30,354 nucleotides of DNA from the IMG/VR virus record IMGVR_UViG_3300020402_000746, positions 1 to 30,354 of that record; one strand, given 5' to 3'. Origin of the DNA: a virus (Duplodnaviria; Caudoviricetes). The position numbers were made by a program, and so were the translations under genes. The notes beneath the pieces were generated by a model. The model made no database searches. It saw only the letters and a list, made by a program, of their open reading frames with translations, and was not told where the DNA came from. Positions within the stretch are counted from its first letter, which is position 1, and each line of letters opens with the position of its first letter. Below, in pieces: positions 2,763-20,659 of the stretch.

Positions 2763-4597
2763 TGGCATATCAAATAAACAAAACTAGTGGTACGTTGCTT
2801 GTAAATCTAGCAGACGGACAAATAGATACTACAACTACTGACATATCATTAATTGGTAAAAACTATTCAGGATTTGGTGAAGCTATTAACGAAAACTTTC
2901 TTCACATGCTTGAGAATTTTGCTAATTCTTCAGCACCAAGTACGCCTTTAGCAGGACAAATTTGGTGGGATACAGCTACATCAAGATTAAAAGTTTACAC
3001 AGGCACAGCTTGGACAACAGGTGGTGGACCTATTGTACAATCAAGCCAACCGTCAATGGTTGCTGGTGACTTGTGGATTAATAACGAAGCAAATCAACTA
3101 TACTTTTATGATGGTACAGATTTAGAATTAGCAGGACCAATATACAACGCATTCCAAGGACGTTCAGGTCCACAGGTTGTTACTGTGCTTGATAACACAG
3201 GTACAAGCAGAACTATTGTTAAGTATTGGGTTGGAGGTACACTTGTTGGTTTATGGAGTAAGATTGCGTTTACACCACAGAACATAGATACTATTCCTAG
3301 TTTTACAGGTAATGTTGTAAAAGGATTTAATGTTGTCGACGCAGACTTTGTGTATGCTGGTACAGCTTCAAGAACATCATCACTTGTTGATTCACAAGGC
3401 GTTGTTAGAACAGCCGCACAGTTTTTAGCTAGTGATTCAGATGACTCTACAAGTGGTGCTTTATCAATAAGAAACAACAACGGACTTACAGTTGGATTAA
3501 CAGATAATAACGTTATTAAAGTAACTAACTTGGGTGTTGTATCAGAAAATAATGTTAGTGGTGAAAACTACATTATTAGAATGACAACCAGTTTAGGAAA
3601 AAGAGATGCTGTAACAATTAATTCAGCGAATAATAGAGTAGGTATTTACAATTCAAATCCAGGTGCTACGTTAGATGTAACTGGAGATATGAAAATTTCA
3701 GGAGACTTAACAGTTTCAGGATCAACTACAACAATAGATTCTGCCACATTGAGAGTTGAAGATAAGAATATTGAACTTGGATTAGGTTCAGATAGTACAT
3801 TACTAAACGACACACAAGTAGATTCTGCTGGTATTATAGTTAAATCTTCAGATGGTGACAAAGAATTTTTATGGAGACAGGCAAGTAACGCATGGACAAC
3901 AGGAAATAGTATTAACTTTACCGGTACAGGTGGATTAAAATTTAATGGTGTTACTATTATTAGTGGAACAGAAGCACCAGGTATTACATCTATTGGTAAC
4001 TTGACTACTGCTAACATAGGAAACATCAGCTTTACTGGCGGTATAGGAGTAAGCACAGGAGTTGTTGATGGTAGTGGAAATGGACTTAACCTTACTTTAG
4101 CAGGCAACTTGAATTTGGTAACTCCAAGAAAAATTACTGGAGTAGCAGAACCAACAGCACCAACAGATGTTACAACAAAAAATTATGTTGATACAGCAAT
4201 AGGTACTGAGGTAATTGCCTTAGCATTAGATATAACAGGATTAGGAACAGGCACTAATTTAAATACAAATATAGCAACAATTTTACAAGATATTGCTCCA
4301 GCCGGAGGTAAAGTAGAAGGCTGTGAAGCAAGAGTTCATTGTACAGCAACAACTGGCGCTACAGCAACGCTATCAGCGGCCAACTTGAACGCAAGTTTTA
4401 ACAAAAGTTTAGTGGTTGTACAACAATTAGACGGTAGTGGAAATGATAGTGGTAGTGTATCAGTAATAGGAGACGCAACATTTAACGATGTTACTGGTGC
4501 TATTACATCTACAGTACAAAGATCTTTGAAATTATTTAGGATAAATGGGGGTAGCTGGGGTTATGTACAAGACCTAACTCCGGGCAATTTAATATAA
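2762..4597 (+). CDS. Tail fibre-like structural protein (paralog 2)
   Basis: 611 aa with the same N-terminal domain (GKNY-GFGE-ENF-HMLENF-P-P-GQIWWD). It carries beta-rich fibre motifs (VGIYNSNP…LDVTG; ITGVAEPT…DVTTKNYVD). Confidence 0.8.
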   Translation: MAYQINKTSGTLLVNLADGQIDTTTTDISLIGKNYSGFGEAINENFLHMLENFANSSAPSTPLAGQIWWDTATSRLKVYTGTAWTTGGGPIVQSSQPSMVAGDLWINNEANQLYFYDGTDLELAGPIYNAFQGRSGPQVVTVLDNTGTSRTIVKYWVGGTLVGLWSKIAFTPQNIDTIPSFTGNVVKGFNVVDADFVYAGTASRTSSLVDSQGVVRTAAQFLASDSDDSTSGALSIRNNNGLTVGLTDNNVIKVTNLGVVSENNVSGENYIIRMTTSLGKRDAVTINSANNRVGIYNSNPGATLDVTGDMKISGDLTVSGSTTTIDSATLRVEDKNIELGLGSDSTLLNDTQVDSAGIIVKSSDGDKEFLWRQASNAWTTGNSINFTGTGGLKFNGVTIISGTEAPGITSIGNLTTANIGNISFTGGIGVSTGVVDGSGNGLNLTLAGNLNLVTPRKITGVAEPTAPTDVTTKNYVDTAIGTEVIALALDITGLGTGTNLNTNIATILQDIAPAGGKVEGCEARVHCTATTGATATLSAANLNASFNKSLVVVQQLDGSGNDSGSVSVIGDATFNDVTGAITSTVQRSLKLFRINGGSWGYVQDLTPGNLI

Positions 4598-4624: not shown

Positions 4625-6103
4625 ATGGCATACGTAATAAACTTAACAAACGGATCGCAGTTAGCAACTGTTGAAGATGGTACTATTGATCAAAGCACAT
4701 CTCTTAAGCTAGTTGGTAAGAACTATGCCGGCTACGGAGAAATACAGAACGAAAACTTTGTACATTTACTTGAAAACTTTTCAAGTGCTAATCAACCAGC
4801 ATCACCTTTAACAGGTCAAATCTGGTTCGATAGTGCTGGAAGCAAGTTAAAGTTTTACGATGGTACAAAATTTAGATCAACAGGTGGAGCAGAAGTAAGT
4901 TCAACACAGCCTGTAGGATTAACAACTGGTGATTTTTGGTGGGATAGCGGTAACAATCAATTATACGCACAAAACGCAAATGGTGGATTTGTATTAATTG
5001 GTCCACAAAGTATTGGTGCTACAGTTTCAGCAATGGTAACTGGGCAGGTTAGAGATTCAAATCAAAACAATAGAACAATAATTAAAGGTACTGTAGAAGA
5101 TGGTGTAGTATTCATTATAAGTAATTCAGAATTTACAATTGACGCTACTGATCCACAAAACGTAATAACAGGATTTGATGTTGTACGACAAGGTTTAACA
5201 CTTAGAAATACAACTTCAGGCACCGACGGAGTAACAAGTGGGGCATTTAGATTTTATGGTACAGCTACCAACGCAGATAAATTAAATGGATTACCAGCAA
5301 GTGATTATGCGTTATCAGGTGCGGCAAACTTCAACAGTATTGTAAGATTTACAGATTCTGGATTGACTATTGGTGATGCTAATGATTTAGCTATTAAGAT
5401 TGATACAGCAGGAAGTGGCGATGAAGCAGTCATCGATAACACAGTTGGACAAAAAATTAGATTTAAAGTAAAGTCAAGTGGAGGTGTTACTACAGAACCT
5501 TTCCATGTACAGGCGGCAGGACTTATTCCTACAGCTACTACAACTTATGACATAGGGGATAATAACTATAAGTTTAGAGCTATGTATGCTACTTCTTTTA
5601 TTGGATTAGCAACAAACGCTACAAATTTACAAGTGGGTAGCAACTTCAGAACAGGTGACACAAGTGCTACTAATAACACCGTAGCTGTAAGAGATTCCAG
5701 CGGTAATTTAGCGGCCAATGTGTTTAATGGAATATCAACACAAGCAAGATACGCTGACTTGGCGGAAAAATATACAACTGACAAAAATTATCCTGTGGGA
5801 ACACTAATGATGATAGGCGGAGAAGCCGAAGCAAAAGCATGTGAAAATGGAGAAGGTATTTGTATAGGAGTAATTAGTACAAAACCAGCTTATTTAATGA
5901 ATTCAGAGGCTGAAGGTCAAGCAGTAGCTTTAGTCGGAAGAGTGCCAGTAAGAATTACAGGTCCGGTAAATAAAGGGGAAGCTGTATTTGTTGCTGATAA
6001 CGGAACAGCAAGTGTTGATGGAAACGGAGACATGATTGGTGTAGCTTTAGAAAGCAACGACAGGCATGAAGAAACTTTAGTGGAGTGTATTTTAAAGTTA
6101 TAA
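4625..6103 (+). CDS. Tail fibre protein (paralog 3) with C-terminal peptidase G2-like autocleaving chaperone domain
   Basis: Shared N-terminal domain. The C-terminus reads ARYADLAEKY…IGVISTKPAYLMN…VALVGRVPV…VNKG from ~5750. Confidence 0.8.
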   Translation: MAYVINLTNGSQLATVEDGTIDQSTSLKLVGKNYAGYGEIQNENFVHLLENFSSANQPASPLTGQIWFDSAGSKLKFYDGTKFRSTGGAEVSSTQPVGLTTGDFWWDSGNNQLYAQNANGGFVLIGPQSIGATVSAMVTGQVRDSNQNNRTIIKGTVEDGVVFIISNSEFTIDATDPQNVITGFDVVRQGLTLRNTTSGTDGVTSGAFRFYGTATNADKLNGLPASDYALSGAANFNSIVRFTDSGLTIGDANDLAIKIDTAGSGDEAVIDNTVGQKIRFKVKSSGGVTTEPFHVQAAGLIPTATTTYDIGDNNYKFRAMYATSFIGLATNATNLQVGSNFRTGDTSATNNTVAVRDSSGNLAANVFNGISTQARYADLAEKYTTDKNYPVGTLMMIGGEAEAKACENGEGICIGVISTKPAYLMNSEAEGQAVALVGRVPVRITGPVNKGEAVFVADNGTASVDGNGDMIGVALESNDRHEETLVECILKL

Positions 6104-7035: not shown

Positions 7036-7072
7036 ATTAAATAGTTATACATTATATAGGAGTATAACTATG
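7036..7072 (+). promoter_or_regulatory. Late promoter box ATTAAATA (7036-7043) overlapping a 10-bp inverted repeat that encloses the RBS and start of the next gene
   Basis: ATAGTTATAC (7041-7050) is the exact reverse complement of GTATAACTAT (7062-7071). SD AGGAG lies at 7058-7062 and ATG at 7070. Confidence 0.7.
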
Positions 7073-7414
7073 GAAGAATCTCTTGAAAAAGCATTGGAAT
7101 TTTCAAATTATTCTGCGACTCTGAATAACCAAAAGAGGATTCTATATGAAAAGTATCAAGAAAACTTAATTATGTACTATCTTGGCGGCACATTTACAGC
7201 TAATAGAGAGCTTATTAATTTTTGTACAATGCTTTTATCTAAAACATCATCTACTTTAATTATTGATGACAACAAAACTCCTATCGAGATAGATGATTTG
7301 GAAGACTTCACAGAATCACTACTACACAAATATACAGAAGCTACAAATCAGTATCATGAGGAGTACAAAACTCTCAGCACTAAACGTAGTGTAGAAGGTT
7401 TAGTAGATGTCTAA
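7070..7414 (+). CDS. Hypothetical protein (acidic, helical; possible assembly chaperone)
   Basis: 114-aa ORF with a strong SD that overlaps the next start. Function not recognised. Confidence 0.7.
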   Translation: MEESLEKALEFSNYSATLNNQKRILYEKYQENLIMYYLGGTFTANRELINFCTMLLSKTSSTLIIDDNKTPIEIDDLEDFTESLLHKYTEATNQYHEEYKTLSTKRSVEGLVDV

Positions 7415-8237
7415 TGGAATCTTATGCTTTGCTAATAATAATGGTTCTATTAATTATATAAAACAAGCAGTAGAACTTGCTTCCCGTTCAAAAAAATATT
7501 TAAATTTACCTGTTTCAATTGTAACATCTACATTTGACAAACTTGATATTCAATATCATGATGTTTTTGATAAGATAATTCAAATTGATGATTCGCAACA
7601 CAATGAAAAAAGATATTATGATGGACAACAACGTAAGACAACACTGAATTTTAAAAACAATGAAAGACATAATGCTTTTAATTTAAGTCCTTATGATAAA
7701 ACTTTAGTATTAGATACGGATTATATAATATGTAATGATAAATTTAAACACTCCTTTCAAACAAATGATAATTTTCAAATTTATAGACATGGAGTAGATT
7801 TATGCTCCTGGAGAAATTACAAAGAGTTTGATTACATCAATGACAAGGGTATTCCTTTTTATTGGGCAACATGTTTTTATTTTACAAAAAGTCAAGAAAG
7901 TAAAATATTTTTTGATCTATTAAGACATTTGTACGATAATTGGGACCATTACAGTGACGTATATGATTTAGCAAGTAGAAATTTTAGGAATGATCATCTT
8001 TTCAGCATGGGTATACACATTATGAACGGATTTCAAGAAGGAGATTGGGCTAAAAATTTGCCTGGAAAAATGTATTATACACTTGATAGGGATATTTTGT
8101 GTAAGATAAAAGACGACAGTCTAACATTTCTCATACAAAAAGAAAAATTATTTAATGAATATATCCTTTCTACAGTCAAGGGTATGAATATACATGTAAT
8201 GAACAAGTTTAGTTTGGAGAGAAGTTTAAATGTCTAA
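7407..8237 (+). CDS. GT-A fold glycosyltransferase-like protein (GT8-like)
   Basis: SPYDKTLVLDTDY DxD motif, N-terminal beta-alpha Rossmann-like start, and a C-terminal H (IHVMNK). Confidence 0.65.
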   Translation: MSNGILCFANNNGSINYIKQAVELASRSKKYLNLPVSIVTSTFDKLDIQYHDVFDKIIQIDDSQHNEKRYYDGQQRKTTLNFKNNERHNAFNLSPYDKTLVLDTDYIICNDKFKHSFQTNDNFQIYRHGVDLCSWRNYKEFDYINDKGIPFYWATCFYFTKSQESKIFFDLLRHLYDNWDHYSDVYDLASRNFRNDHLFSMGIHIMNGFQEGDWAKNLPGKMYYTLDRDILCKIKDDSLTFLIQKEKLFNEYILSTVKGMNIHVMNKFSLERSLNV

Positions 8238-9027
8238 AGGTTACATTATGATAGCTACCGGAGAAGAGCATATTCAACAAGCCTATCTATGTGCTAAGAG
8301 TATAAAACAAACACAAACTATCAAAAACGTTTCTTTGCTTACCGGTGATGAAGTTTCTGATCAATACAAACATGTGTTCGATCATGTAATTGCTATTCCT
8401 ACATCAGATAGAAACACACAAAACTTCTACAGAACAGATATTAGATGGAAAGCGTATCACGAAACTCCATATCAAGAAACTGTTTTACTGGATACTGATA
8501 TGCTTTTTTTAGATGACATAAGTTATTGGTGGTCGTACTTTAAAAATTATGATTTATGTTTTACAAGTAATGTTAGAACATATAAAAATAATCCTGTTAC
8601 TAGTCATTACTATAGAAAAGCGTTTATTCAAAATAATATTCCTAATATATACTGTGCGTTTCATTATTTTAAACAAAATGATACAGCTTTAAGATATTAT
8701 TTAAAACTTAAACAAGTCTGTAGAAATTACAAGGAATATTATAAAATATATGTTCCTAAACTTACACCCAAAGTAAGTAGTATGGATTTAAATCATGCTA
8801 TTACTTTATTAGATGAAGATATCAAGAATTATATTTTTAAACCAGCAAGTTTTGTTCATATGAAATCTCATGTCCAAGATTGGGAGACCACACAAGAAGA
8901 TTGGACAGAAACAATTCCGTTTTATTTCGACGCAGAAAAACAATTAAAAATTGGAAATTACTTACAACATGGCATAATACATTATACCAAGAATAATTTT
9001 TGTGAAAGGATATTAAATGAATATTAG
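8230..9027 (+). CDS. GT-A fold glycosyltransferase-like protein, paralog of 7407..8237
   Basis: TPYQETVLLDTDM DxD motif, plus FVHMK and IIHY motifs. Confidence 0.65.
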   Translation: MSKGYIMIATGEEHIQQAYLCAKSIKQTQTIKNVSLLTGDEVSDQYKHVFDHVIAIPTSDRNTQNFYRTDIRWKAYHETPYQETVLLDTDMLFLDDISYWWSYFKNYDLCFTSNVRTYKNNPVTSHYYRKAFIQNNIPNIYCAFHYFKQNDTALRYYLKLKQVCRNYKEYYKIYVPKLTPKVSSMDLNHAITLLDEDIKNYIFKPASFVHMKSHVQDWETTQEDWTETIPFYFDAEKQLKIGNYLQHGIIHYTKNNFCERILNEY

Positions 9028-9535
9028 CACCAAACAATATGTATCTTTTGATAAAAACACAGGTGAAATTTTTGGTATAGGACCAAGCATTAACGAGTCA
9101 TACAATCATATTGAGGTTACAAACGAGCAAGTTGAGCCTTTTCAAACACTAAAAGAAAATTTTATTAATTGGAAAGTAATATACAACAAAAGAGATAAAA
9201 ATTTTCAGTTAAAGAAAAATGATGATGAAGCGCCACAAGAATTTTTGCTTAATGAATTGACTTCTCCCAAAGATAATTTTCATGAAATAGAATTTGTAGT
9301 TGACAAGAGTAAAGGTGAATGTTATTTAAACACAATAGATACACCAAAAAACTTAGATGAAGTTAGTTTTTATGTAACAAAAAAAGGAGATCCTCATTTC
9401 TTATTAAATACTTTTACTTTTAAAATAGGATCAAAGGAATCATTTCCTTTTAAAAACATGGAATCTTACAGCGTATACACTAAAAATATATTTGCTGATT
9501 GTGTAACAAGAGAAACAGATGAAAATTATTTGTAA
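9017..9535 (+). CDS. Hypothetical protein
   Basis: 172-aa ORF with AAGGA SD, overlapping both neighbours. Confidence 0.65.
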   Translation: MNISTKQYVSFDKNTGEIFGIGPSINESYNHIEVTNEQVEPFQTLKENFINWKVIYNKRDKNFQLKKNDDEAPQEFLLNELTSPKDNFHEIEFVVDKSKGECYLNTIDTPKNLDEVSFYVTKKGDPHFLLNTFTFKIGSKESFPFKNMESYSVYTKNIFADCVTRETDENYL

Positions 9536-9695
9536 ACATCTTGGACCATATTATGGTATTCAAAAAGCATTTCCTTGTAGGGCTTTTACAAACGAATTTG
9601 TAGGAGAAATGTGGATTGAAATAGACGAAAAATATGAAACACTAATATACTTGATGTTTGGAGACAGCGTGATTAGGAGTGATTATGAAAATTAA
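9519..9695 (+). CDS. Small hypothetical protein, 58 aa (MKIICKHLGPYYGIQKAFPCRAFTNEFVGEMWIEIDEKYETLIYLMFGDSVIRSDYEN)
   Basis: Hand-translated and below the ORF-track cutoff. It fills the gap exactly and overlaps both the upstream stop and the downstream start. Confidence 0.6.
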   Translation: MKIICKHLGPYYGIQKAFPCRAFTNEFVGEMWIEIDEKYETLIYLMFGDSVIRSDYEN

Positions 9696-10602
9696 AATAG
9701 CAGAACTAGATATTATTTTTTTAAGTTATGACGAACCTAATGCTGAAAAAAATTGGGCTGATTTGAAAAACAAAGTTCCATGGGCAAAACGTGTTCATGG
9801 GATACTAGGTTCAGATGCCGCACATAAAGAGTGTGCTAGAATAAGTGAAACAGACAGATTTGTAACAGTTGACGGTGATAACACAATAAAACAGGAATTT
9901 TTAGATCAAGTGTTAGACTTTGACACCCATGCTAATTTAGAAAAAAGTGTTATAAGTTGGTGTGGACAAAATATTATAAACGGCCTAATGTATGGAAACG
10001 GTGGATTGAAATGCTGGCCAAGAGAATATGTTTTGAATATGAAAACACATGAGAATGCTGATCCATACAATGTTCAAGCCAAGGTAGACTTTTGTTGGGA
10101 CGCACAATACATACAGCAGAATAGTTGTTTTAGTTTGACTCATAATAACTTTACTCCTAAACAAGCCTGGCGAGCAGGTTTTAGAGAAGGTGTTAAATTA
10201 TCTCTTAATAGAGGAGAAAGGGTAGCACATTCTGAGTTTTTGAAAGGACATCCTAAAAATTTAAACATGTTGTATATTTGGACAATGGTTGGTAGTGATG
10301 TGAAAAATGGCGAATGGGCTATTTACGGAGCAAGAGAAGGTTTAGAAATGACAATGCTTTCGGATTGGGATTACGTTAATGTAAGAGACTTTACACATTT
10401 AGACGAGCTATGGGCAAATAGAGACGAAATGCCAGAGGATATTTTACATAATGAAATATGGAATATAGGTAACAACTTAATTAATCAATTACAATTACCT
10501 ATTTCTACTCAACCACTGAGCCAAGAACAAAGTATTTTTTTCAAAACTGTAAATCAAAACTATGGCAGAGTAATTAATAAATCGGTAATAGATAATGATT
10601 AG
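9685..10602 (+). CDS. GT-A-like glycosyltransferase (phage SYDEPNA family)
   Basis: IIFLSYDEPNAE…FVTVDGDN (DxD)…YGNGGLKCW…AWRAGFRE. The start is placed at ATG 9685, after AGGAG. Confidence 0.6.
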   Translation: MKIKIAELDIIFLSYDEPNAEKNWADLKNKVPWAKRVHGILGSDAAHKECARISETDRFVTVDGDNTIKQEFLDQVLDFDTHANLEKSVISWCGQNIINGLMYGNGGLKCWPREYVLNMKTHENADPYNVQAKVDFCWDAQYIQQNSCFSLTHNNFTPKQAWRAGFREGVKLSLNRGERVAHSEFLKGHPKNLNMLYIWTMVGSDVKNGEWAIYGAREGLEMTMLSDWDYVNVRDFTHLDELWANRDEMPEDILHNEIWNIGNNLINQLQLPISTQPLSQEQSIFFKTVNQNYGRVINKSVIDND

Positions 10603-11959
10603 AGCTGATCCAGCTGAAGTTCAAGAAAAATTAAATAAAGTTGGCTGTGGATTTTGTTTAGCAAAATGGACACAGGTAACTATACACTTAGGATCAGGGA
10701 TAAATCATAGCTGTCATCATGTCAAAGCTCATAAAATTCCTTTAGAAGATCTAAAAAATAATCCAAATGTACTACATAATACGGAGTTCAAAAAAAATAC
10801 AAGACGTAGGATGCTTAATAATGAACGTCCTGAAGAATGTGATTATTGTTGGAGAATAGAGGATAATACTGATAAGTTTAGCGATAGAGTGTACAAAAGT
10901 GCTGATCATTTCAGTTGGGAAGATTTTGATTCAATATCCAAGTCAACAGGGCATGAAGATTTCTATCCTAGATATGTGGAAATAAGTTTTAGTAATATAT
11001 GTAATTTTAAATGTTCTTATTGTGGTCCTGCCTTTAGCAGTAAATGGGCAGAAGAAGTAAAACAACAAGGTTATTATGATTTAGGAATATGGCACTACAA
11101 TGCCATTGATCCAGACGAGGTACAAATTTTAGAAAGGGAACATAATCCTTATATAGAAGCATTTTGGAAATGGTTCCCAGAAGCAGTGAAACATATGAAA
11201 GTTTTTAGAATTACAGGCGGAGAACCTTTGCTCAGTAAACATACACAAAAGGTTATTGATTACTTGATTGAAAATCCGCAACCTAATTTAGATTTTGCTA
11301 TCAATTCTAATGGATGTCCGCCCAAAGACTTGTGGCAAAAGTTTACACAAAGTATAAAAGAGCTAGAAAGTAAAAAAAGTGTTAATCAGTTTACACTATT
11401 TACAAGTGCTGAAAGTAGTGGAGCTCAAGCAGAATACAGTAGATATGGCATGGATTGGTTCTTGTTTAAGGATAACATAGAATACTTTGCTAGGAATACA
11501 GATAGTAGGATAAGTTTTATGAGTGCCTTTAATATATTGAGCTTACCAACCTTTAAAAATTTTTTGATTTGGATTCTTCATTTGAAAACAACATACTATA
11601 GGAAACACAGAGCAGATCATAGAATAAAGGTTGACATACCTTATGTAAGAAATCCTCAGTTCTTAGATGTAAAAGTAGCAAGTGAAGAACTTGTTAAGAA
11701 ACATTTAATTCCAGCTGTAGATTTTATGATTGAAAACACAGATATTGGTAGCTTTGGAGATATAGAAACAGCTAAACTTAAAAGAATTGTAGCTGATGTG
11801 TTATACAGATTTAAAAACAAAGAATTCAAAGAAGAACAAAGACAAGCACAAAAACTATTTTACAAATTTATAAAGGAATATGATAAAAGAAGAAATTTAG
11901 ATTTTGTAAAAACATTTCCTGAATACAAAGAATTTTACAAGGAAGTTAAAGATGCATGA
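10595..11959 (+). CDS. Radical SAM protein with N-terminal twitch/SPASM-like Cys cluster
   Basis: CNFKCSYC (CxxxCxxC) and TGGEP. Extra N-terminal Cys motifs CGFCLAKW, SCHH and ECDYCW. Confidence 0.85.
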   Translation: MIRADPAEVQEKLNKVGCGFCLAKWTQVTIHLGSGINHSCHHVKAHKIPLEDLKNNPNVLHNTEFKKNTRRRMLNNERPEECDYCWRIEDNTDKFSDRVYKSADHFSWEDFDSISKSTGHEDFYPRYVEISFSNICNFKCSYCGPAFSSKWAEEVKQQGYYDLGIWHYNAIDPDEVQILEREHNPYIEAFWKWFPEAVKHMKVFRITGGEPLLSKHTQKVIDYLIENPQPNLDFAINSNGCPPKDLWQKFTQSIKELESKKSVNQFTLFTSAESSGAQAEYSRYGMDWFLFKDNIEYFARNTDSRISFMSAFNILSLPTFKNFLIWILHLKTTYYRKHRADHRIKVDIPYVRNPQFLDVKVASEELVKKHLIPAVDFMIENTDIGSFGDIETAKLKRIVADVLYRFKNKEFKEEQRQAQKLFYKFIKEYDKRRNLDFVKTFPEYKEFYKEVKDA

Positions 11960-12641
11960 TATAATTTTTATAAGTTATGGAGAACCAAACGCTGATGAAA
12001 ATTATAATGATCTTTTCAAAAGATTTAACGTAAAAGGAGTTTTTGGAGATAGAGTAAAAAGGATAGACGGAGTAAAAGGAATACACCAAGCACATATTGA
12101 AGCGGCAAAAAAGGCAAGCACTCGATATTTTTATGTAGTAGACGGTGACGCTGTCATTACAAAAGAATTTAATTTTGATTACTTTGTTACTTCACAAAAT
12201 GAAAATATTGTTCATGTTTATAAAAGCATGAATCCTGTAAATAATCTAACTTATGGTTATGGTGGAGTTAAATTGCTACCAAGAAAATTAACTAAGAATA
12301 TGAATGTAAACAGTTTTGATATGACAACCAGCATTTCAGATAATTTTATTGTGTTCGACAAAGTAAGTAATATAACAGCTTTTGATACTGACTCGTTCAA
12401 CACATGGAAAAGTGCTTTTAGAGAATGTGCTAAATTAAGCAGTAAAGTGATAGATAGACAACAAGAAGGAGAAACAAATGAAAGACTTAAAATATGGACC
12501 ACTACAGCTAATGGAAGATTTCGTGAAGATGCGATTCGAGGTGCTAATGCTGGTATGGAGTTTGGCTTTTCTAGGGGGTCTGATCTTCGGTTGATAAATG
12601 ATTTTGATTGGTTAAAATCTAAGTTCGATGATTGCCAATAA
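11952..12641 (+). CDS. GT-A-like glycosyltransferase, paralog of 9685..10602
   Basis: IIFISYGEPNADEN…YVVDGDA…YGYGGVKL…WKSAFREC. Confidence 0.65.
   Translation: MHDIIFISYGEPNADENYNDLFKRFNVKGVFGDRVKRIDGVKGIHQAHIEAAKKASTRYFYVVDGDAVITKEFNFDYFVTSQNENIVHVYKSMNPVNNLTYGYGGVKLLPRKLTKNMNVNSFDMTTSISDNFIVFDKVSNITAFDTDSFNTWKSAFRECAKLSSKVIDRQQEGETNERLKIWTTTANGRFREDAIRGANAGMEFGFSRGSDLRLINDFDWLKSKFDDCQ
12478..12594 (+). CDS. Putative nested small membrane protein, 38 aa (MKDLKYGPLQLMEDFVKMRFEVLMLVWSLAFLGGLIFG)
   Basis: Lies in the +1 frame inside 11952..12641. SD AAGGAG (12466-12471) is 6 nt before ATG, the ORF has a 17-residue uncharged hydrophobic C-terminus, and it ends in a TGA-TAA double stop. Confidence 0.45.
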   Translation: MKDLKYGPLQLMEDFVKMRFEVLMLVWSLAFLGGLIFG

Positions 12642-19207: not shown

Positions 19208-19221
19208 AATAAATATTTATA
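19208..19221. promoter_or_regulatory. Overlapping bidirectional late promoter boxes
   Basis: AATAAATA on + (19208-19215) and TATAAATA on - (19221-19214) overlap in the palindrome ATAAATATTTAT (19209-19220) between divergent genes. Confidence 0.75.
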
Positions 19222-19861: not shown

Positions 19862-20418
19862 TTGAAGTAAAAGTAATAACGGATGATCTCATTCCTAACT
19901 TAGAAAACTTTTGTAAAAAAGCAAAAGAATTAGGTTATGTAAACAATAGTAGTTTGAAAGAAATGAGGTTTGAAAAAACAAAGGAATGGGGTGAATATTT
20001 TTGTGCTATGGAAAACGGAAATATCATAGCAGTTGCTGGGTGTCATCCTTTACCAGAGGTAAGCAATGATGCTTGGAGGATACTATTTAGAGGTTGCGAA
20101 CTTCCGCACAATAATAATTTTAAGGGATTAGGCAAAGGTGATTGGAATAGTGTTACACAAAGAGAATTTATACCTCGCTTTATAGACTACTGTCCTACAG
20201 ATAAGCTATATATTACTACAAACATTTACCGAGAGCATTCAAACGGTAAAGCGGCTCGCAATCACAGATTAATGGGTCTTTTAGCAAAGCAAGGTATATT
20301 AGAAAAATATTGTGATATGGAATTATATAACTGTGAGCAAACTGTTTGGCGTTTAGATATTAATGAATATAATAGACGTAGAAGTTTGCTGAAAGGAAAT
20401 TATGTGGTACAATCCTAA
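19858..20418 (+). CDS. GNAT-fold acetyltransferase-like protein
   Basis: YFCAMENGNIIAVAGC…WRILFRG…FKGLGK pattern resembles GNAT motifs D/A. Confidence 0.5.
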   Translation: MIEVKVITDDLIPNLENFCKKAKELGYVNNSSLKEMRFEKTKEWGEYFCAMENGNIIAVAGCHPLPEVSNDAWRILFRGCELPHNNNFKGLGKGDWNSVTQREFIPRFIDYCPTDKLYITTNIYREHSNGKAARNHRLMGLLAKQGILEKYCDMELYNCEQTVWRLDINEYNRRRSLLKGNYVVQS

Positions 20419-20659
20419 ACATTTAAAAGAAGCAAAAGCAAAAGCAGGTAGAGAAGATGCGGGGTATTGGTGGCATTTTAGATTAGCAATGGCTGAATTC
20501 TTTTTTCTACTTGGAGTAACAATAGGAAGTCTTATTCACGCAATTTTTCCTTGGGTTTTAGATTTTAAATTATTAGAATGGCGTATTAATAGATTAAAAG
20601 AACTTAAGAAAAAATTGCCTGATGATCCGCAACTAAAGAAGGTAAAATTTGATGAGTAA
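20402..20659 (+). CDS. Small membrane protein, DUF6356-like
   Basis: HL…GYWWHFRLAM, a hydrophobic helix, then LIHAIFPW. Confidence 0.6.
   Translation: MWYNPKHLKEAKAKAGREDAGYWWHFRLAMAEFFFLLGVTIGSLIHAIFPWVLDFKLLEWRINRLKELKKKLPDDPQLKKVKFDE

Follow-up and report, generated by a model that had tools for sequence, protein, structure and literature searches.

A probable overprinted gene for a small membrane peptide in the 3′ part of a phage GT-A-type transferase gene

Does the +1 frame of a phage enzyme gene carry a second gene, and what could its product do? The question is raised by a stretch of 30,354 nts, hereafter the window, in which a short ORF with a hydrophobic end and a Shine-Dalgarno (SD) sequence of its own lies wholly inside a larger gene, called here the host gene. 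The window covers 30 kb of the genome of a large tailed phage, with relatives on contigs of up to 327 kb, and its source is an uncultured marine giant phage.

The nested ORF and its host gene

The first-pass annotation had described an AAGGAG motif, an ATG at 12478, a +1-frame ORF of 38 codons and a TGA-TAA end, all of which can be read directly from the sequence (Table 1), with a spacer of 6 nts between AAGGAG and ATG. It had also placed this SD among the best in the window. Taking SD strength as the energy of pairing with an 8-nt anti-SD motif, we obtained -8.1 for the nested ORF and weaker values for all 34 annotated starts (best -7.5), in agreement with that ranking. Four among 459 out-of-frame internal ATGs had a stronger SD, and the nested ORF alone in this set combined an SD of -7 or below with at least 30 codons. 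The unusual host codons noticed over the overlap were equally apparent: a CAI-like index was 0.499 for codons 176-214 vs 0.734 for codons 2-165 (median 0.709), and a value as low was reached in 3 out of 684 windows of the index. The hydrophobic tail was recovered too, on the hydropathy measure alone (best 19-residue value of 1.98).

Table 1. Coordinates of the nested ORF, its signals and the surrounding enzyme genes in the window
Feature	Position	Strand	Remarks
Packed co-directional enzyme genes behind fibre-like genes	7070..12641	+	DxD-motif ORFs among them
Host-gene paralog in the enzyme island	9679-10602	+
Radical SAM gene in the enzyme island	10595-11959	+
Host gene, 229 aa	11952..12641	+	GT-A / NDP-sugar-transferase fold predicted for residues 1-147; invariant D64-G-D66
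SD of the nested ORF, AAGGAG	12466..12471	+	host codons E172-G173-E174
Nested +1-frame ORF, 38 aa	12478..12594	+	soluble, variable N-terminus of about 21 aa; hydrophobic segment at the C-terminal end, predicted single-pass
Predicted transmembrane segment, peptide residues 22-38	12541..12591	+	host third positions constrained
Tandem stops TGA-TAA	12592..12597	+	TGA 12592-12594, TAA 12595-12597; written in host L214-I215-N216

On the single sequence the case for the nested ORF is weak and not decisive, because the +1 frame stays open in 17.6% of synonymous recodings of the host gene (P(open) = 0.18), the SD letters spell host E-G-E with codons that are common anyway, and genes with T-ending codons automatically yield hydrophobic +1 frames (PMC8227390). 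It is the homolog tests that carry it.

The host protein fell into no Pfam family at its cut-off, and a PDB sequence search with its profile gave 0 matches. Its structure model (pLDDT 87.7) aligned with B4GALNT1 (Z 10.6, rmsd 2.8, 131 aligned residues), the protein matched the PBCV-1 capsid glycosyltransferase (GT) at E 1.8e-4, and both D64 and D66 are invariant in homologs. According to the model, residues 1-147 have the GT-A/nucleotidyltransferase superfamily fold with a DxD motif, with which glycosyl or nucleotidyl transfer would both fit. Structure matches to GTs (Z 9.2-9.4) and to nucleotidyltransferases (Z 9.0-9.1) are tied; from the former label ‘glycosyltransferase gene’ we therefore retain the GT-A fold with DxD and not the choice of activity. 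The overlap (codons 176-214) corresponds to the helical C-terminal part of the protein, outside the fold core. The host protein belongs to a large family (6,273 clusters). In some relatives (L023, L024, L041, L048, L059, L062, L070 and L079) the host domain is found inside longer ORFs of 450-874 aa; the C-terminal extension of L023/L024 resembles, by eye, the 214-aa methyltransferase-like ORF of the window, and this fusion retains the nested peptide.

The order of genes in the enzyme island is the same in the Ralstonia jumbo phage RsoM2USA, as judged by ORF sizes. A membrane-like segment was found in only 2 out of 29 tested ORFs between 7070 and 29248. One is the nested peptide; the other product is encoded by an 85-aa ORF at 20402-20659 (+ strand, hydropathy 1.92). 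Between 12619 and 19181 lies a block of enzyme genes, most of them on the minus strand (among them methyltransferase-like and carbamoyltransferase genes), which runs towards the host gene and overlaps it by 23 nts. The octamer TATAAATA, which we take to be T4-late-promoter-like, occurs three times in the window, at 4593 and 25405 on the plus strand and at 19221 on the minus strand; one copy stands just before the gene at 4625, and none lies near the nested ORF.

Frame, codons and start sites among homologs

A first comparison of the best 80 of 543 viral relatives of the host gene separated two types of 3′ end: one retains the ATG, the open +1 frame and the hydrophobic tail down to 58% host identity, and the other carries +1 stops. 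For finer comparisons we used 26 peptide-bearing representatives with less than 90% nucleotide identity, and 15 peptide-less ones. The +1 frame was open over host codons 170-211 in 26/26 peptide-bearing representatives, over codons 182-217 in 1/26, and in at most 4/26 for windows ending before codon 194. Over the overlap, the +2 frame was open in 0/26 and the antisense frames in 18/26, 17/26 and 0/26; only the +1 frame was open in all 26/26.

Since picking sequences by their open frame makes a stop count circular, the homologs were split by a host-frame trait that is blind to the +1 frame, namely the distance from G205 to I215, either short (10 residues) or long (13 residues). The set was made of the first loci, 160 added loci and RsoM2USA (242 sequences, 9 without anchors being dropped; 144 unique regions). 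ATG, open frame and hydrophobic tail were found together in 101/111 short-type vs 1/33 long-type regions. The peptide was present in 30/33 short-type and 0/14 long-type regions of the training set. Held-out loci, which are still kin of the training loci and include the yield of one search with a peptide-bearing query, behaved similarly: 73/78 of the short type were open with ATG, 71 of those with the hydrophobic tail, and 4/18 of the long type were open, one with a hydrophobic tail. Codons that would create a +1 stop were counted 13 times in the 111 short-type regions (260 sites) vs 160.7 expected, and 49 times in the 33 long-type regions vs 56.9 expected. With near-copies removed, the figures were 9 vs 50.5. 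Conservation of the +1 frame, which the first-pass annotation had named as a point to check, is thus borne out by the open held-out regions and by the avoidance of stops. Seven short-type loci (L111, L115, L121, L126, L034, L073 and L160) carry +1 stops, most of them with a proximal SD that looks weakened by eye; the nested gene has probably been lost there.

Openness alone is insufficient, because in the neighbouring radical-SAM family an open hydrophobic +1 window is common without synonymous suppression; part of that gene has an open +1 window in 25/41 by chance. Another candidate for a nested hydrophobic peptide in the +1 frame, of 35-45 aa and with an AGGAG-type SD, was seen in the nearby radical-SAM gene of relatives (L031:4524, L023:5383, L022:5082, L079:5068 and L020:4893) and not in the window. 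Its frame was open in 28 of 41 representatives, with ATG, at least 25 aa and a hydrophobic segment in 26, and no synonymous suppression was detected among the 41; it makes a weak candidate for a gene. A 33-aa hydrophobic +1 ORF with SD is also present in the upstream radical-SAM gene of two close loci only (L020:1510 and L025:1510).

The host codons were then compared at four-fold third positions. Differences among the 26 peptide-bearing representatives amounted to 0.57 outside the overlap, 0.52 in codons 176-193 and 0.26 in codons 194-214; the 15 peptide-less representatives gave 0.61, 0.70 and 0.62 in the same three zones. Codons 176-193 are near synonymous saturation and their amino-acid divergence is as high as elsewhere, which argues against a recent sweep. 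In the span of the predicted transmembrane segment, A at four-fold sites was reduced (0.06 vs 0.41). The invariant host position 198 is written GCT in 99/101 peptide-bearing vs 12/43 peptide-less regions, and GGA is never used at G197, G201 or G205 in peptide-bearing regions. Between the window and its relative L007, synonymous changes were 3/39 inside the overlap vs 45/144 outside (p=0.002); judging from these codons, the constraint is active in the window's own lineage. Suppression at synonymous sites, the other comparison proposed at first pass, is thus seen both across the family and in this pair.

The start site itself moves. An ATG at the window's position was found in 63 regions, with a proximal SD of -4 or below in 61 and a distal one in 1. 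In 38 regions the ATG lies solely 3-5 codons upstream; none of these has the proximal SD, and a distal SD reaches -4 or below in just 17/38, the distal SDs being weak. The host residue D/N168 is kept in 12/38 upstream-start vs 59/63 window-position-start regions, and the proximal SD is present in 4/43 peptide-less regions. As read from these alignments, the SD relocates together with the ATG, usually at the cost of a conserved host residue. When the two traits are mapped on a tree built from the part outside the overlap, they need 12 and 11 changes, and only four independent pairs on well-supported branches gave 3.3 concordant and 0 opposite (sign test, p=0.25). The co-movement of SD and ATG in these sequences is therefore persuasive as a pattern, and not significant once kinship is allowed for. 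That frameshifting yields an enzyme isoform anchored in the membrane is less likely in our view, since SD and ATG shift together at initiation spacing.

How is the peptide distributed? Among 50,697 phage records the host gene matched only RsoM2USA (42% identity), its one match in a cultured phage, which groups with XacN1 (PMC8504454); this phage is of the long type with stops and lacks the nested ORF. Genome collections contributed 11 loci, 9 of them anchored. Eight of these nine are of the long type with stops, including Bdellovibrionia MAGs at 40%, and the ninth, on a 4-kb contig of a MAG, carries the peptide. Homologs of the host gene (40-47%) were also noted on Bdellovibrionales, Bdellovibrionia and Oligoflexia MAG contigs of 19-494 kb (L329-L332), including two anchorable loci without the nested ORF. 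In a tree built on 83 columns that include the overlap, and whose outgroup does not fall on one side, all peptide-bearing rows (59/59) are in one branch holding 68/97 rows, with peptide-less rows nested within and an SH-aLRT of 88, which is not strong. When mapped on the tree of the catalytic part, rows with and without the peptide intermingle, which requires 8 changes (with L055 mislabelled as closed). As most distant relatives are without the peptide, de novo overprinting is suggested: from the sequences we infer one de novo origin in a clade of the gene's 3′ module, followed by losses, and this 3′ module would have spread by recombination over different catalytic parts.

Could the codons be explained with no gene at all, by a DNA or RNA element or by shared ancestry of one 3′ module? 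The mosaic 3′ module, the single branch of peptide-bearing rows and the outcome of the independent-pair test all speak for this. Of the changes at host first positions, a fraction of 0.69 is silent in the +1 frame, near the values of peptide-less homologs (0.66) and control windows (up to 0.75), a comparison that does not separate the two readings. However, RNAalifold predicted only 3 pairs at -0.82 kcal/mol and none with a compensatory change, an Rfam scan returned no match, promoter-like sites occurred at chance level, and promoter and terminator scans were negative. Also, codons 176-193 avoid stops although near synonymous saturation, and the SD shifts jointly with the ATG and is mostly gone where the frame is broken. 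We thus consider it very unlikely that there is no gene. Since some hundred homologs retain a +1 ORF that has its own SD, start and stop and is both open and hydrophobic, the nested ORF is, in our assessment of the comparison, very likely a real, translated overprinted gene. The nested single-pass microprotein under dual-coding constraint proposed in the first-pass annotation is strongly supported by conservation, synonymous suppression and the SD moving with the ATG. Contigs from RNA libraries (4 runs of one study) span the peptide region, which records presence only, and such libraries may contain DNA.

The predicted peptide and its possible role

The 93 unique peptides are 37-51 aa long, with a median identity of 43% and a minimum of 18%. 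Their soluble N-terminal part varies, its net charge ranging from -3 to +5, and from residue 22 on a single charged residue was found in 1606 positions. Positions 30 and 34 are both occupied by small residues in 81/93 peptides (small-xxx-small), and the alignment is without any conserved stretch of 7-10 columns. Because much of the helix identity is forced by invariant host residues and by hydrophobicity, what comparison of the homologs shows is selection, at the level of sequence, on initiation, open frame, stop position or length, and an uncharged C-terminal helix rather than on a specific binding face; the product of 38-44 aa is predicted to sit in the inner membrane of the host cell as a single helix. 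Rz1-type o-spanins are lipoproteins with an N-terminal signal and lipobox Cys, nested in an i-spanin gene. Here the N-terminus is hydrophilic, no Cys is conserved, and the host gene encodes a soluble GT-A-type fold.

Searches with the peptide in Pfam and PHROGs revealed no family common to more than 2/26 members, short peptides being easily missed, and no similarity to lysis families. The best ESM Atlas scores (0.85 and 0.80) are leads only. Profile searches in collections of 5.8 and 1.84 billion proteins yielded 7 and 11 matches; these are, judged by sequence alone, the same nested peptide, apparent chimeras in which a frameshift joins it to the host frame, and one low-complexity repeat. When the profile was run on the window and 80 loci in all six frames, no match beyond the host gene had an E value better than 1.2. 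A 15-billion-protein collection contains the host protein on 79 contigs; the exact peptide is absent from it, and peptide relatives appear there as scattered singleton gene calls only.

We tentatively favour an inner-membrane micropeptide acting on a membrane protein of the host cell, a reading that we hold plausible, short of probable, by analogy and from the sequence features above. Ribosomes would initiate internally on the island mRNA at the nested ATG, and the peptide would insert in the inner membrane with its N-terminus in the cytoplasm. Small residues 30 and 34 could pack against an envelope-synthesis or transport protein of the host cell or against a second copy of the peptide, which may then tune superinfection, the timing of lysis or the synthesis of envelope glycans, with no need of the enzyme in whose gene it is written. 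The variable soluble tail, the many enzyme homologs without peptide, the near-wholly soluble island and the precedents discussed below favour such a role. An anchor or scaffold, bringing its own enzyme or other island enzymes to the inner membrane for glycan assembly, would agree with the co-encoding of peptide and enzyme, with the scarcity of membrane-like segments in the island region (2/29 ORFs) and with the 3-residue-shorter host C-terminal helix region that peptide presence tracks; moreover, the nested bacterial comS and GndA are described as supporting the function of their host gene (PMC11230408). However, the soluble tail that would have to bind the enzyme is short as well as variable, 33 long-type regions, RsoM2USA and bacterial homologs do without the peptide, and its presence is interspersed with absence on the catalytic-part tree. 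The variable tail and the many host-gene homologs without peptide somewhat disfavour anchoring, which we regard as unlikely.

Internal initiation or the nascent hydrophobic chain could also act in cis, keeping ribosomes on the island mRNA or tethering the mRNA to the membrane, with an effect on downstream genes. The very strong SD would suit this, as would the nested stop about 45 nts upstream of the host stop, the next gene being co-directional in most relatives; but the window and L001-L008 have a convergent gene in that place and the constraint is still there, and a charge-free helix is needless for simple coupling. We give such a cis effect little credence. Large tailed phages normally use holin-endolysin systems, which counts against a pore, a holin-like oligomer or an E/Sgl-like lysis factor, as do the absence of the peptide from many relatives, its apparently repeated loss and the fact that no lysis family of Pfam or PHROGs resembles it. 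Its anatomy resembles what is looked for in finding sgl genes, that is an SD, more than 25 codons, one transmembrane segment (TM) and the +1 frame (PMC7693330), and the small-xxx-small pattern of 81/93 peptides points the same way; a pore or lysis role is nonetheless quite improbable in our view.

A bolder proposal, which we find rather doubtful, extends the favoured membrane-protein reading: large tailed phages, although they have genome space in plenty, would routinely breed unannotated membrane micropeptides in enzyme genes, and this one would be an antibiotic-like de novo inhibitor or modulator of a host envelope-synthesis protein, of the E/LysM/Iap kind. If true, the peptide would be valuable enough for the phage to alter conserved enzyme residues in order to rebuild the SD after start shifts. 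The locus is a well-supported case of a gene overlooked by annotation, and its approximately 90 natural variants, with start turnover and apparent losses, can serve as a model for how overprinting gives rise to a new gene in a large dsDNA phage. As known nested phage membrane peptides target essential envelope enzymes, these variants are also cheap candidate envelope modulators.

Comparison with known systems

Overprinted phage membrane peptides are known already. No description of this nested gene, or of its co-moving SD and start, was found in the main texts of the open-licence literature, and this predicted family and its jumbo-phage glycan-island setting were not found in print. The E protein of phiX174 is about 90 aa long with an N-terminal helix. 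Gene E, a lysis gene nested in gene D, is a precedent for a nested membrane peptide (PMC8227390), and its product targets MraY (10.1101/2023.10.16.562596). In both cases a gene in a shifted frame, de novo for E and probably so here, brings T from the host third position to the second position and thereby yields a leucine-rich membrane helix (PMC8227390). Unlike E, which belongs to a tiny ssDNA genome and has a proven target, the peptide described here has 38-44 aa, a C-terminal helix, a patchy distribution in large tailed phages and a putative target; no sequence similarity between the two was found.

The leviviral sgl genes, e.g. lysM, embedded in the +1 frame of rep and with lytic function shown (PMC7693330), are similarly short, with SD and one TM, lie in a less conserved host part, and are gained and lost among relatives (PMC7693330). 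They belong to ssRNA phages, whereas the nested ORF lies in an enzyme island of a dsDNA phage, and no homology between them was found. It comes from a large tailed phage, unlike the E and Sgl genes of small ssDNA or ssRNA phages with one lysis gene.

The island itself is reminiscent of the host recognition cluster of pelagimyophages and cyanomyophages, a hypervariable glycosyltransferase and radical SAM island beside tail-fibre genes (PMC7029224): in the window, too, an enzyme island with radical SAM stands beside fibre-like genes. In contrast to the window island, no mention of nested genes was found for that cluster (PMC7029224).

In bacteria, the 36-aa microprotein GndA of E. coli is nested in gnd, associated with the inner membrane and UUG-initiated, as shown experimentally (PMC11230408). 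Our nested ORF is likewise on the same strand in a shifted frame of an enzyme gene and of similar size, and the limited distribution is consistent with de novo origin (PMC11230408). It differs from GndA in being phage-borne, in its ATG start with a strong SD and in being supported by comparison only.

The peptide Iap is small and hydrophobic and acts on a host membrane enzyme, the O-antigen polymerase; its gene is free-standing and shares a cassette of temperate phages with a gene for a membrane polymerase. Seroconverting phages such as Pseudomonas D3 are the source of Iap, the inhibitor of alpha polymerase (10.1101/2021.11.03.467220). Unlike in the Iap cassette, no multi-pass enzyme was found among the 29 tested ORFs, and the nested peptide has no family match. 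Like Iap, it would be a small hydrophobic phage peptide encoded beside surface-glycan genes, and by this analogy Iap would provide the functional model for the explanation that we favour.
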